Below are positions 19,853-24,000 of a stretch of DNA of 28,918 nucleotides, in pieces. This DNA is from Alphaproteobacteria bacterium (GTDB taxonomy: Bacteria; Verrucomicrobiota; Verrucomicrobiia; Chthoniobacterales; UBA10450), in the NCBI GenBank assembly GCA_050257575.1, contig JBLMXD010000065.1, forward strand, positions 1 through 28,918, given 5' to 3'. The position numbers were made by a program, and so were the translations under genes. The notes under the pieces were generated by a model. That model ran no database searches, had not been told where the DNA came from, and saw nothing but the letters and a program-made list of their open reading frames with translations. The stretch's first letter is position 1, and the number at the start of each line of letters is the position of its first letter.

Positions 19853-19963
19853 GTCTCGGTAGAGCGCTACATCCGCGCACATGTTTGAGCGAATAGTAAA
19901 ATTCTCAGAGGACATCACTTCCAGGCGTTGCGTGATCAACTTCAAGCGTCTCTAACGGCAAGT

Positions 19964-20698
19964 ATGAAGAAGCAAGTGTCAGCTTTTGGACAGTCCGACA
20001 TCGTTCGCCTCAACAATGAAGATGCGGTCAGCACACTTGTTGAACATGCCGTGACCGGTCTCTGGGATGTTGTTAATGAACTGACGCGCCTTCGTCGGAC
20101 CTCGCGACAAAACTATCGGGTGACCATCTTCGGTTCTGCGCGTCTCAAGCCCGGTACCCCTGCTTATAAGGGAGTCAGGAAACTCGCCGCCGAGCTGACG
20201 AAGATCGGTTGCGATATCATCAGCGGCGGTGGTCCTGGTCTGATGCAAGCGGCGAACGAAGGAGCGCACTCCGTGCAGCCAAAGGGTCACAAACGGTCGG
20301 TCGGTATTCGCATCGAGTTACCATTTGAACAGGAGGTCAATCCGTTCGTGAGTCTGGCGTACGAACACCGCACATTCTTTTCCCGCCTGCACCATTTCAT
20401 GATTGTTTCGGATGCGTTCGTCGTAGTGCCGGGTGGGATCGGAACATTGTTAGAACTATCGCTCGCCTGGCAACTCCTTCAGGTCCGCAAACTTTATAAT
20501 ACGCCGCTCATTCTCGTCGGAAAAATGTGGGCCGGGCTGGTCAACTGGGGGCGCAGCTCGATGCTCCAAAAAGGCAACGAACTCGCCAGCGAGATCGATT
20601 TCACCATCCCGCATTGTGTGAGCACAATTGATGAATGCCTCGCGCTGATCCGAGAGAACCGCGCTGCCTGGCTGGCGTCGCAAAGAAGAAAGAAGTAA
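19964..20698 (+). CDS. LOG-family nucleotide phosphoribohydrolase
   Basis: VTIFGSAR, SGGGPGLMQAAN, IELPFEQ, PGGIGTLLE (PGGxGTxxE). Confidence 0.92.
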   Translation: MKKQVSAFGQSDIVRLNNEDAVSTLVEHAVTGLWDVVNELTRLRRTSRQNYRVTIFGSARLKPGTPAYKGVRKLAAELTKIGCDIISGGGPGLMQAANEGAHSVQPKGHKRSVGIRIELPFEQEVNPFVSLAYEHRTFFSRLHHFMIVSDAFVVVPGGIGTLLELSLAWQLLQVRKLYNTPLILVGKMWAGLVNWGRSSMLQKGNELASEIDFTIPHCVSTIDECLALIRENRAAWLASQRRKK

Positions 20699-20702
20699 TC
20701 CC

Positions 20703-21785
20703 GTGAGCAAACGAATCGGTGTTGTGACCGGCGGTGGAGATTGTCCGGGCTTAAACGCAGTTATTCGCGCCGTGGCGAAAGCTTCGGCCAAACGCGGCTG
20801 GGAATGCATAGGTATTCTCGGCGGCTACGAAGGTTTACTCAAACCACAGCGAACCAAGCCGCTCGATTACCACACGCTTAGCGGATTGTTACCGTGCGGC
20901 GGAACAATTCTCGGCACGGCCAATCGCGGAAAATTCTCCGCCAAGGTCGGCCATGGCGAGAGTCGCACGTTGCCGAAGGAACTGCTGGAGGGTGTGAAAG
21001 CGGGAATGGACGCGCTTGGTTTATCCGCGCTCGTGTCTATCGGCGGCGATGGTTCCTTAAGCATCGCGCAGCAAATGTTCGAGTACGGTATTCCGGTCGT
21101 CGGGATACCCAAGACGATTGATAACGATCTCGAAGGAACGCTTTTTACCTTCGGATTCGACTCCGCCGTCTCGTCCGCGACCGATGCACTGGATCGGCTT
21201 CATACGACTGCTGAAAGCCACAATCGTGTCATGGTTTTAGAAGTCATGGGGCGTTATGCAGGCTGGATCGCTTTGTACGCCGGTGTGGCCGGCGGCGCGG
21301 ACGTGATTTTGATCCCGGAGATTCCGTTCAGCTACGAAAGCATCTGCGCGAAGGTTCGCGAACGCGAGAAGCTCGGAAAAGAATTCACGATCATCATCGT
21401 CGCCGAAGGCGCTCGCGAAAAAGACGGCAGGTTTGTAACTTACGGTGGGGAAACTAAAATCGGCGAGGCACGGCTGGGCGGGATTGGAGCGGTCGTCAGC
21501 GCGGAGGTTGAGAAACGTACGGGTAAAGAATCACGCGTGTGCGCGCTTGGTCACCTTCAGCGTGGCGGATCGCCCACGACGTTTGATCGCGCGCTGTGCT
21601 CCATGTTCGGCGCGACGGCAGTGGAACTCGTGGCAGCGGGTGAATTCGGAAAAATGGTTGCATTCAACGGGCCGCAGATTGGCGCAGTTAAAATCAGCGA
21701 GGCGATTGGCAAACTCAAGACCGTGCGTCCTGACGGGAATCTCGTTCGCACGGCGCGCGCCCTTGGCATCTGTTTCGGAGACTAG
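20703..21785 (+). CDS. pfkA: 6-phosphofructokinase, group III / mixed-substrate-type PfkA
   Basis: GGGDCPGLN, GGTILGT, IGGDGS, PKTIDND, EVMGR, LGHLQRGG; GTG start 4 nt after the LOG stop. Confidence 0.96.
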   Translation: MSKRIGVVTGGGDCPGLNAVIRAVAKASAKRGWECIGILGGYEGLLKPQRTKPLDYHTLSGLLPCGGTILGTANRGKFSAKVGHGESRTLPKELLEGVKAGMDALGLSALVSIGGDGSLSIAQQMFEYGIPVVGIPKTIDNDLEGTLFTFGFDSAVSSATDALDRLHTTAESHNRVMVLEVMGRYAGWIALYAGVAGGADVILIPEIPFSYESICAKVREREKLGKEFTIIIVAEGAREKDGRFVTYGGETKIGEARLGGIGAVVSAEVEKRTGKESRVCALGHLQRGGSPTTFDRALCSMFGATAVELVAAGEFGKMVAFNGPQIGAVKISEAIGKLKTVRPDGNLVRTARALGICFGD

Positions 21786-21924
21786 GCGCCGCCGCATTCA
21801 ACCTCAGGGGCTTGGCGCATTCGTTGAGCGTTGCACCTCCAGAAGAATCTGTTGGCTGATCGTGGAAAACTTGATTCGAGAACAGGACGTAATTCCCGTA
21901 TTGACGCAGGCAGTCAGTTTGTCG

Positions 21925-22266
21925 TTGAAATATGCTGTGTTCATTCGTTCTGGAAGGCGTAAATGCATTTTCTTCTTTTCGGTCTTCATTTTGATCTTAC
22001 AAACCGCCGTAGCAGGGCAAAATCAAAAGAATGGTGTGACGGTTTCCTACGAGAGCCTTGGCAGGTCCCGAATCGCGCGCTTTACAAACTCAAATTCATT
22101 TCCAGTCCGAGTGGAATTCTCATATCAAGGCACAAGAGTGCATGGTTCAGCTGAGGCGTCCGGTCAGGATGCGGTTTTTGTAGCAGCCAAATTTTCCTCC
22201 ACTTACGGTGGCAACGGGCTTTCCGTCACCTCTGTTCGAATCACCGGGGTTATGCGGTCGGACTGA
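21925..22266 (+). CDS. Small secreted beta-rich hypothetical protein
   Basis: C-terminal part of the 21445-22266 ORF: basic N-region plus hydrophobic core (RSGRRKCIFFFSVFILILQTAVA), then a ~85-aa beta-strand-like domain. Start uncertain (TTG 21925 or GTG 21862). Confidence 0.55.
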   Translation: MKYAVFIRSGRRKCIFFFSVFILILQTAVAGQNQKNGVTVSYESLGRSRIARFTNSNSFPVRVEFSYQGTRVHGSAEASGQDAVFVAAKFSSTYGGNGLSVTSVRITGVMRSD

Positions 22267-22267
22267 C

Positions 22268-22418
22268 GCTGATGACGACTTCCGAAGAATCGGTCGCATT
22301 CACCTGCCCGCAGGTTGACGCGATTCAGATCAGCGACGCAATCCGAAACTCAAAACGGGGCATCCGAAGCAATCTCATTCGCACTACGCGTGCGATCGGC
22401 ATTCGCCTGGGCGATTAA
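22268..22418 (+). pseudogene. Degenerate second copy of the pfk 3' end
   Basis: VAFTCPQVDAIQISDAI...NLIRTTRAIGIRLGD* aligns to pfk VAFNGPQIGAVKISEAI...NLVRTARALGICFGD* (21/42 identical columns by hand alignment), with apparent 1-nt indels. Confidence 0.85.
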
Positions 22419-22421
22419 AGC

Positions 22422-23207
22422 TCACGGTCCCGGCACACTCATTGATCGTTGCACGTCAAGAAGCGGCTGTTGACTTATCTTGAGAACGCCTTCTTGAGAG
22501 CGATCCAAGTCTGCAATTAGCTCAATTACGACAGAGAAAGCGATGGCTACCGCGAGGATCGCGAGAGATCTACGGGCTCCAGCCAGGCCAGTGTGGTAGC
22601 CCATCGCAGTGAGAGACAGCGCAGCAACGGCGAAAAGGCCTAGCCAAATTGCACCGGGAATTCGACTCCTCAGCCCTGCCTGCACCCGTTTCGCGTGCAG
22701 ATCGATCATCTCATTAAGCGACTGGACGAACAGACCGACGATAATCGAGTTTGGGTTTTTCTCCGCGACCGTTTCCGCTTCCGCCCAGACCTGTTGTTGA
22801 ATGTGATCCGACCGGCGCATTCCCTCTTCGATTTTACCCGATTTAACCGCATTTAAACGAACACCAACGTAATCCCGGAGAAGTGCCCGGATTTGTTCGC
22901 CCCGCTCGGGAAGCATACCTGCACGCAAGTAGGTCGTCCCAATTGCGTTGGCTTCGTCCAGCAGTACCTGCCTCTTTGTGTCGAACCTTGTGGCTGCCAA
23001 TCCAAACGTGAACGCAAGAATGAAAGCGAATAATCCGAGGGTAGCCCCAACCATTGTTCCAACCGGGGCCTCCTTCTCCTGCTCGGGCCGGCTACGCCGA
23101 TACTTTCCCAGGTGATAGCCACACTCTACCGAAAGTAGGACAACAATTAATATGACAACGAAGAGCCCCCAAAGAGGCAAAGTATCAATCGCGGTGGCAG
23201 TTTGCAT
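22422..23207 (-). CDS. DUF4239 (bestrophin-like) membrane protein
   Basis: GLFAFILAFTFGLAATRFD.KRQ..LDEANAIGTTYLRA...DLDRSQEG pattern. Start placed at ATG 23207. Confidence 0.85.
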   Translation of the reverse strand: MQTATAIDTLPLWGLFVVILIVVLLSVECGYHLGKYRRSRPEQEKEAPVGTMVGATLGLFAFILAFTFGLAATRFDTKRQVLLDEANAIGTTYLRAGMLPERGEQIRALLRDYVGVRLNAVKSGKIEEGMRRSDHIQQQVWAEAETVAEKNPNSIIVGLFVQSLNEMIDLHAKRVQAGLRSRIPGAIWLGLFAVAALSLTAMGYHTGLAGARRSLAILAVAIAFSVVIELIADLDRSQEGVLKISQQPLLDVQRSMSVPGP

Positions 23208-23232
23208 GGTGATTTCTACTGTTTGCGCTTTA

Positions 23233-24000
23233 TCAGGTGTCGCCTCGCCTTCGGGCAAGAAAATACGACACAGGAATTCCGATTAAAGCCGCTATGAGCG
23301 CCACGACCGAAATCTGAGACGCATGTCTGACTACAAAGAAAGGCGAATAGCGCTGATGATACAGGACAAAGCCAGGCAGGAACCGGTTCCACGGTAGAAG
23401 GAGCACGAGTAAAAACCCCAAGGCAGAACAACCCGGCATTCCCAGATCGCAGAAGCGTCGGCCCTTCCAAAAATGCGCGCTGCCAATCATGAGCGATGTC
23501 AAAAATATCATCGAAAGGCATACTCCGGTCACACGGCGGAATTTCTCGCCACCAATCGCTCTCGAATGTTGACGAAAATCTTTCTCAATCAGGTTCGAGA
23601 TTGCCTTGGTCTTATCGGCGGATTCGCCGCTTACGGAAACCCGGCGTGAGGAATCCCCCAAATCAATCGTAACAGATGAGATGGGCGCATCGGATTGCTC
23701 GTAGGTATAAGAAAAACTGAAAATGTCGTTTGGAAACGCAAGGCTGTTCGCCAGCGGGAAGCGCGGCAGTTCGAACTCGTAGTTATCAGCTGCAAGCTTC
23801 ACAAATTCCCGAGCGGAACCTGGTTCAACGGCGGGGCCATTGGCTGCATCAACCAGCGACCGGGTCTTACTCAAGATCACGTCGAGGTCCTTCGCTGCCA
23901 ATTTCAGAGGAGGCAGATTACGGGTCTCTGAAAATTGCGCCCCGCTCAAGGGCCATGTCGTGACCGAAACCCAAACGCTGAAAACAACTGCGAACCGCAT
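23233..24000 (-). CDS. Hypothetical membrane protein (signal peptide, soluble domain, ~3 C-terminal TM segments)
   Basis: Start at ATG 24000 removes the overlap with the upstream gene and gives a signal-peptide-like N-terminus, MRFAVVFSVWVSVTTWPLSGA. Confidence 0.65.
   Translation of the reverse strand: MRFAVVFSVWVSVTTWPLSGAQFSETRNLPPLKLAAKDLDVILSKTRSLVDAANGPAVEPGSAREFVKLAADNYEFELPRFPLANSLAFPNDIFSFSYTYEQSDAPISSVTIDLGDSSRRVSVSGESADKTKAISNLIEKDFRQHSRAIGGEKFRRVTGVCLSMIFLTSLMIGSAHFWKGRRFCDLGMPGCSALGFLLVLLLPWNRFLPGFVLYHQRYSPFFVVRHASQISVVALIAALIGIPVSYFLARRRGDT

Follow-up and report, generated by a model that had tools for sequence, protein, structure and literature searches.

Phages and integrative and conjugative elements (ICEs) enter the 3' ends of tRNA genes and of protein-coding genes, such as fda and guaA, and supply a replacement end. 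Homology-facilitated illegitimate recombination during the uptake of related DNA, a process reportedly described by de Vries and Wackernagel in 2002, is another mechanism that comes to mind when a gene end is found in duplicate. Here, we analyze such a duplicate on a contig of 28,918 nucleotides (JBLMXD010000065.1, positions 1 to 28,918 of the forward strand; hereafter, the window) of the assembly GCA_050257575.1, a stretch that recurs in soil metagenomes. Downstream of an intact phosphofructokinase gene (pfk) and of a small gene for a probably secreted protein, the initial annotation had noticed a second, displaced pfk 3' end, and that displaced end is indeed present. It probably represents a neutral relic of a second junction between pfk and a convergent gene for a bestrophin-like membrane protein, brought into its present position when two rearranged halves of the locus were joined by recombination.

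The genome that holds the window (G000, of which the window is contig C65) was assembled from a metagenome and, at a completeness of 68%, comprises 1.9 Mb on 307 contigs. It was compared with 108 genomes of the genus, mostly incomplete metagenome bins, in which G and L numbers denote the genomes and loci of relatives, and with 80 of the 208 metagenome stretches that encode a relative of the small protein. Contig C216 of G104, with a pfk product 96.7% identical at the amino acid level, is the closest relative and shows the same arrangement. This arrangement is real DNA and not an assembly artefact because the point at which the small gene meets the displaced pfk end lies within contigs of four soil-metagenome studies: an independent metagenome contig of 878 nt spans the live tail, the small gene, and the displaced end in the broken form typical of G104, and contigs from three other studies cross the junction in the form seen in the window itself.

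The displaced pfk end, henceforth the fossil, belongs to a larger repeat, the unit of which covers the last 46 pfk codons (315-360) with their stop and then, beyond a spacer, the 3' end of the gene convergent with pfk, which encodes the bestrophin-like protein (PF14023, formerly DUF4239). The whole repeat occupies 21645-21872 (copy 1) and 22280-22489 (copy 2), with the small gene between the two copies, and the copies are reciprocal, that is, copy 1 combines the live pfk tail with a dead bestrophin-like stump, and copy 2 combines the dead pfk tail with the live bestrophin-like end (Table 1). When the window is compared with itself by blastn, 21642-21864 matches 22277-22482 over 224 columns (68.8% identity, E 2e-16), and the DNA alignment of the repeat runs on through the stump, which tblastn aligns with residues 261-278 of the live gene product (E 0.01 in G000, 4e-4 in G104, and 0.006 in G006). 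Identity does not differ significantly between the tail and spacer parts of the repeat (Fisher p 0.3-0.9). The two indel-free blocks in which the homology was originally noticed came out exact on recount, with 38/51 and 33/48 identical nucleotides and the 28 differences distributed 17/9/2 over codon positions 3, 1, and 2; the best ungapped matches of these blocks elsewhere in the window reach 28/51 and 25/48. At the protein level, BLASTP of the 48-aa frame that covers the fossil (22272-22418) against the pfk tail finds 22 identities among 43 residues (E 4e-12). It was likewise correctly described that the fossil ends in a stop (TAA, 22416-22418) at a distance of 3 nt from that of the convergent gene (22422-24). 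The homology attributed to 22268-22418 is real, although it starts at about 22280 (codon 315, TTC, or ~311 in relatives) rather than at 22268 and reaches further to the right. Before 22280 come 13 nt and the small gene, which is homologous to other such genes elsewhere, and an extension of the fossil back to pfk residue 296, offered by tblastn, was rejected as the 3' end of the small gene read in another frame. A tblastn search with the whole pfk recovered only the tail between the copies and no 5' or middle part of the gene; thus, there is no pfk 5' trace of the decayed tandem paralogue that had been named as a fallback explanation.

Two junctions define the rearranged region, and both are shared with relatives. 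J1 (21872/21873), the right-hand end of the bestrophin-like stump, is common to G000, G104, G006, G115, and G044 and is present in decayed form in G002; its carriers other than G000 and G104 are devoid of the fossil. J1 marks a single, old deletion, by which the bestrophin-like body formerly situated between pfk and the small gene was lost. J2, which leads from the small-gene stop to pfk codon ~311-315, is common to five lineages, namely, G000, G104:C216, L137, L167, and L146. The last three are metagenome loci, 3 of the 80, in which the small-gene stop is followed by the same ~13 nt and then by pfk codon ~311/315. In L137, a fossil of 50 codons remains in frame and free of indels, with residues replaced and the stop lost, and is followed by the bestrophin-like gene and orf359, a membrane open reading frame (ORF) of 359 aa; in L167, the fossil is internally deleted after codon ~323, so that half of it is gone; and in L146, it is down to 'GCCGGCGGCGACTTC', about 15 nt. 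Neither pfk nor the stump lies upstream of the small gene in L137 and L167. Because J1 is found without J2 (in G006 and others) and J2 without J1 (in L137 and L167), each junction exists alone. J2 was therefore made once, and the series of small gene, fossil, spacer, bestrophin-like gene, and orf359 is a haplotype of its own. Furthermore, the occurrence of J2 in L137 and L167 in the absence of an upstream pfk means that the fossil is not simply the original end of this pfk displaced by an insertion.

From the distribution of the two junctions, we infer the following order of events. In some ancestor, DNA just past the small-gene stop would have been illegitimately joined to pfk at about codon 311-315, possibly through GCC-rich microhomology, a plausible route in that both parents are GCC-rich at J2 (GCCGCCAACGC after the small gene and GCCGCCGGTGA in pfk codons 309-313). 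After this join, the small gene would have been followed by a pfk tail, the spacer, and, convergent, a complete bestrophin-like gene. A haplotype other than this one would independently have lost the bestrophin-like body between pfk and the small gene, leaving an 18-codon stump behind the live pfk. The form seen in the window would then most likely combine a left half of the J1 type with a right half of the J2 type, united by a homologous crossover within the small gene or close to it, and allele exchange between lineages at this locus may have carried the relic along. This crossover account is the simplest one because J1 and J2 each occur alone elsewhere and are found together only in G000 and G104.

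Several observations weigh against this scenario. A search for a crossover point inside the small gene gave no signal. A tree of the fossil and 16 live tails, built on 138 nt and thus too short for a firm placement, sets the fossil weakly with G006 and G115 (support 73/78); neither an origin from a G006/G115-like lineage nor a position of the fossil as the sister of the tail of its own genome is rejected, the latter giving p 0.32 in the approximately unbiased (AU) test. In the spacer and the bestrophin-like 3' part, copy 1 is nearest to the fossil side of G104, with 82-83% identity vs 66-70% for other species: the copy-1 spacer 'TAGGCGCCGCCGCA' resembles 'TAGGCGCCATCGCA' behind the G104 fossil, and both lack the same hairpin half, the first one, which is present in G006, G115, G044, and G104b. 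The likeness of the spacers and this common loss would fit an in-lineage duplication or a later gene conversion better than two unrelated parents. Finally, a precursor haplotype (with a full-length pfk behind the small gene, or with a tandem unit) was not found in the 108 genomes and 80 metagenome loci, with the qualification that the bins are mostly incomplete and that G104, with its two versions of the locus, may be a mixture.

Some of these observations speak for a tandem duplication within the lineage, in which a unit beginning at pfk codon ~311, spanning the bestrophin-like gene, and ending with the small-gene stop would have been duplicated, creating J2 in one step, after which the first bestrophin-like body and the second small gene would have been deleted, the haplotypes with J1 or J2 only being derivatives or recombinants. 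A possible substrate, with pfk, the bestrophin-like gene, and the small gene in this order, exists in G011, G089, G104:C86, L144, L151, and L163; the copies are mutually closest in the spacer and the bestrophin-like 3' part, with the same hairpin half missing; and the AU test leaves the fossil as the sister of its own tail unrejected. We nevertheless regard the duplication as unlikely. It takes three events, and both deletion junctions occur also in genomes without the duplication, so that horizontal exchange would still be required. Of the six states private to the live tail, none is found in the fossil (0/6), the fossil is no further than the live tail from the tails of other species, and the tandem intermediate is missing from the 108 genomes and 80 metagenome loci.

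The initial annotation had favored yet another history, in which 21786-22267 would be the remnant of an integrated element: a mobile or circular element with the small gene and a replacement pfk 3' end would have entered pfk and pushed the original end aside, its recombinase being lost afterwards. The repeat around the insert has the topology expected from the single-crossover integration of a circle, and the small gene shows signs of spread between lineages. Loci in which pfk directly abuts the bestrophin-like gene, which could be taken for empty sites, do exist, as had been anticipated, in four genome loci (G011, G089, G069, and G104:C86) and in the metagenome contigs L144, L151, and L163. 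All the same, we find such an element very unlikely. No integrase or transposase gene or remnant was detected in 21786-22279: besides the spacer and the stump, this interval contains nothing but the small gene and the conserved region upstream of it, and this small gene, without a Pfam match, is a fixed resident of the locus in most of the genus. There are no short, near-identical att-like cores: the repeats are long (about 208-230 nt) and diverged (69-80% identity, with indels), and they include a reciprocal fragment of another gene. The live tail is, within the resolution of its 138 nt, congruent with the body of the gene, J2 occurs in L137 and L167 without an upstream pfk, and pop-out or circular forms were not seen in the metagenome contigs, which cannot show rare forms. 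It is conceivable, if quite doubtful, that the small gene and the flanking gene-end fragments make up a recombinase-free cassette with portable homology arms; were this the case, entry and exit would be possible in any related genome with a pfk/bestrophin-like junction, leaving both host genes intact, and the cassette would explain both the more recent coalescence of the small gene compared with its flanks and the persistence of the fossil in several lineages. On balance, the joining of independently formed J1 and J2 halves by recombination is the history that we consider likely.

Whatever the order of the events, the fate of the fossil is clear. Between G000 and G104:C216, the DNA from pfk through the fossil is ~91-99% identical, and the indels across this span are confined to the fossil region, with three of 1 nt inside the fossil and one of 15 nt just past its stop; the segment behind the fossil stop that is retained in G104 is the counterpart of the spacer behind the live stop. 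The two fossils are 91% identical vs 97% for the pair of live tails. They differ by 13 substitutions, spread 5/2/6 over the codon positions, whereas the live tails differ at 4 of 141 sites and by no indel. Among the sites that are invariant in 16 live tails (from the 15 full-length orthologues and 1 partial one), 11 are changed in the fossil, 4 in both fossils and 7 privately in G000; these substitution counts are small numbers. The fossil of L137 is 81% and 76% identical, over all sites, to those of G104 and G000, respectively, and the third positions of the small gene are 79% and 76% identical in the same pairs. In these pairs, the fossil is thus as similar as the small gene is at its synonymous sites, and it behaves like neutral DNA that travels with that gene. 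Indels and deletions differ among the fossils of G000, G104, L167, and L146, and that of L137 is free of indels and has lost its stop. That the fossil is a non-functional, neutrally decaying relic of a rearrangement is not in doubt.

The alternative raised at the outset, that the 48-aa frame is an expressed peptide derived from the PFK tail, can hardly be entertained. The frame is open in G000 and begins with ATG; it is open again there, however, owing to a -1 and a -2 deletion, and its middle part, the residues NSKRGIRS, is off the pfk frame. In G104, next to a pfk that is 97% identical, the frame holds stop codons after private 1-nt insertions, the independent metagenome contig has the same broken frame, most of the fossil is deleted in L167 and L146, and the substitutions between G000 and G104 show no third-position bias and strike sites that are invariant in the live tails. 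The frame is not conserved, and the peptide as a conserved gene is refuted. The stretch is present in no RNA run. In annotation, this frame should not be called a gene. The excess of third-position differences between the fossil and the live tail (17/9/2) had been read as the mark of long coding divergence; as proof of long functional divergence, it was discarded, given that a neutral fossil next to a selected live tail is not rejected (position 3 to positions 1+2 observed at 18:11 and 20:17 and expected near 1:1; rough binomial p about 0.1-0.3).

The live pfk itself is intact. Full-length orthologues, 15 in the 108 genomes, are 84-97% identical at the amino acid level and all have 360 codons without indels; one more orthologue is partial. 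The trees of the pfk body (942 nt) and of the pfk tail (138 nt) both unite G000 with G104 only, with stems of 0.11 and 0.10, respectively, the rest being a star, and the identity profile has no step at codon 315. Hence, live tail and body are congruent at the resolution that these data offer, the 138-nt tail being too short to resolve more than the grouping of G000 with G104, and because the trees agree and there is no identity step, the proposed chimeric origin of pfk is without evidence: the gene is not demonstrably chimeric. Of the three-way comparison that the initial annotation had envisaged, body and live tail agree within that resolution, and the fossil is placed only weakly, its tail being too short. 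The pfk studied here is an accessory copy, full-length or partial in ~15/108 genomes. A second type of pfk, ~55% identical at the amino acid level, is carried elsewhere by most genomes of the genus. In most genomes, there is also a second bestrophin-like paralogue (~35-39% amino acid identity) located elsewhere, and G000:C255:3482-4225 is listed with these paralogues; the orthologues of the bestrophin-like gene of the locus are 72-83% identical at the amino acid level.

Positions of the genes, the repeat parts, and J2 are given in Table 1. Pfam comparisons were limited to the ORFs between ~19.5 and 25.2 kb of the window. On the plus strand, this region encodes a 110-aa ORF, a LOG-family gene (19928-20698), pfk, and then the small gene; on the minus strand, it encodes the PF14023 gene, followed by two membrane ORFs of 359 and 411 aa (orf359 and orf411), neither with a Pfam match.

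Table 1. Genes, repeat parts, and other features of the pfk region of the window
Feature	Position	Strand	Evidence and remarks
Live phosphofructokinase gene (pfk), 360 aa	20703..21785	+	Pfam PF00365, E 1e-100; directly behind the LOG-family gene
Repeat copy 1, part a: live pfk tail, codons 315-360 and stop	21645..21785	+	Aligns with 22280-22418; 97% identical to the G104 tail
Repeat copy 1, part b: spacer behind the pfk stop, short type	21786..21803		Alignments
Repeat copy 1, part c: dead bestrophin-like 3' end, stop and ~18-22 codons	21804..21872	-	tblastn, DNA alignment
TTGACG, -35-like box upstream of the small gene	21901..21906	+	TTGAC kept in all relatives (upstream alignment of 13 loci); putative function
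Small gene, 109 aa, GTG start	21937..22266	+	N-terminal hydrophobic segment; signal peptide judged by eye
Junction zone J2, 13 nt, small-gene stop to first clearly pfk-derived codon	22267..22279		Same junction in G104, L137, L167, L146
Repeat copy 2, part a: fossil pfk tail, codons 315-360 and TAA stop	22280..22418	+	+1, -1, and -2 indels; core of the 48-aa frame
Live bestrophin-like membrane protein gene	22422..23258	-	Pfam PF14023, E 1.8e-19; last ~22 codons (22422-22489) are repeat copy 2, part c

The small gene, the product of which is probably secreted, is a resident of the pfk locus in most of the genus: it is present in ~30 genomes, in several contexts and positions. It belongs to no Pfam family, and the nearest Atlas clusters of the small protein are labeled 'hypothetical protein' and come mostly from Verrucomicrobiota, a weak pointer to this phylum. 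The GTG start is shared with G104, and ATG is found at the aligned position in the other relatives aligned (11 loci); a TTG at 21925, given as the start in a plain ORF listing, is probably wrong. A scan of 21600-22600 for consensus promoters and terminators yielded nothing above the shuffled background. In some comparisons, synonymous divergence is lower in the small gene than on either side of it, which fits the spread of this gene between lineages.

The interval between the LOG-family gene and orf359 is variable, with at least seven gene orders among the 108 genomes. In G011, G089, and G104:C86, pfk is convergent on the bestrophin-like gene and the small gene follows; in G069, the same convergent pair comes without the small gene; in G098, the LOG-family gene stands directly against the bestrophin-like gene, with no pfk; in G018 and G117, pfk stands directly against orf359; in G002, G115, G096, G116, and G061, pfk is followed by the small gene, with or without a bestrophin-like stump; in G006, pfk and the small gene are followed by a 3.4-kb insert with a sulfate-symporter-family gene; and the form seen in the window, with pfk, stump, small gene, fossil, and bestrophin-like gene, is found in G000 and G104:C216 only. 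The divergence of the individual genes is no less uneven. Third-position identity between G000 and G104 is 70% for the LOG-family gene, 85% for pfk, 94% for the small gene, 58% for the bestrophin-like gene, and 79% for orf359. Between species, identity at third positions is about 45-60% in pfk, LOG, and orf411, a level taken to be close to saturation, and 50-62% in every pair for the bestrophin-like gene. Even between G000 and G104, it swings from 94% in the small gene to 58% in the bestrophin-like gene. The locus is a mosaic, shaped by frequent allele exchange between lineages. Compared with G006 and G115, which are of the J1 type, the third positions of the small gene are 68-72% identical and those of pfk 53-54%; the block of small gene and fossil coalesces more recently than its flanks. 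A tract similar to G006 and G115 around the small gene was also sought with 100-nt identity windows, which gave only a weak signal, the third-position counts being clearer.

The variation at the locus extends beyond these gene orders. Across the window's 22400-23190, the bestrophin-like body of G000 is only ~79% identical in DNA to that of L068 (G104:C216), with flanks at 93-99%, and the boundaries of the low-identity segment lie near the 3' end of the fossil and the 5' end of the bestrophin-like gene; it looks as if this body was swapped by homologous recombination in the lineage of either G000 or G104. The G104 bin holds two versions of the locus, L068 (C216), which has the form seen in the window, and L097 (C86), in which pfk (85% identical at the amino acid level) is convergent on the bestrophin-like gene, with the small gene next; either these are two paralogous loci or the bin, with a stated contamination of about 5%, mixes two populations. 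In L098 (G044:C67, 3481-4735), an enolase gene breaks off at ~residue 380 (its Pfam Enolase_C match ends at position 228 of 296), and the 33 terminal pfk codons continue from there in another frame, followed by the small gene behind a hairpin spacer and a bestrophin-like stump. Four metagenome contigs, L122, L135, L136, and L142, carry this truncated enolase upstream as well (97-99% amino acid identity), and the join constitutes a second, independent pfk-tail fossil. L092 (G090:C356) has pfk fragments in scrambled order some 370-560 nt past the small gene and in the direction of that gene, first a piece resembling residues 326-341 and then a match to residues 275-312 (92% amino acid identity). 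Another gene-end stump is seen in L034 (G018:C8), where a 19-residue remnant of the LOG C-terminus (residues 234-252) lies upstream of pfk. In L178, L182, L186, L198, and L199, orf411, orf359, and the small gene share one strand, pfk and LOG are on the other, and a 5' fragment of the bestrophin-like gene (residues ~22-79) lies between the two groups; inversions also act at this locus. The 3.4-kb insert of L033 (G006:C25, 2785-6190) lies between the small gene and orf359 and encodes, in addition to unassigned ORFs, the Na/sulfate-symporter-family gene (PF00939, E 5e-111).

The locus presents a worked example of how uncultured soil bacteria reshuffle a set of genes, here the LOG-family gene, pfk, the bestrophin-like gene, and the gene for the small, probably secreted protein, apparently by deletion, illegitimate joining, and allele exchange between lineages. 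The gene-end stumps that are left behind are datable and can serve to mark haplotypes of common descent.

Among the known systems with which the locus can be compared, insertion-duplication of the Campbell type, by a circular molecule, similarly produces direct repeats of a homologous segment around an insert, and recombination between the repeats would restore the pfk/bestrophin-like arrangement of G069; the difference is that a circular form or a pop-out joint was not seen in the metagenome contigs, which cannot show rare forms. As with integrative elements, a gene end is duplicated on either side of the insert, the upstream copy keeps the gene intact, and uninterrupted sites occur in relatives. 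Unlike in those elements, however, there is neither a recombinase nor a short conserved core but a diverged repeat of ~220 nt that also repairs the convergent gene, and the insert is a single resident gene. Homology-facilitated illegitimate recombination, through a homologous anchor and a microhomology-type join, would add DNA of a foreign allele and leave a partial gene of this kind; here, J2 is old and shared, so that the event is not attributable to G000, and DNA uptake is putative. In its own state, the fossil resembles gene remnants at illegitimate (microhomology-mediated) or deletion junctions: a truncated 3' piece without a start codon, joined at an arbitrary point within the gene to unrelated DNA, then inherited and decaying by indels and unbiased substitutions. 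What sets the locus apart from such remnants is that two complementary ones, derived from the ends of pfk and of the bestrophin-like gene, enclose a single small gene in a configuration that resembles a long target-site duplication, and that the remnant has traveled with its neighbors across several lineages. A gene-end repeat around an insert can arise without a mobile element, which calls for caution in scans that call integrated elements by such repeats; the fossil is explained by ordinary genome evolution, as the likely stump of an illegitimate joining at a recombination-prone locus, now eroding.

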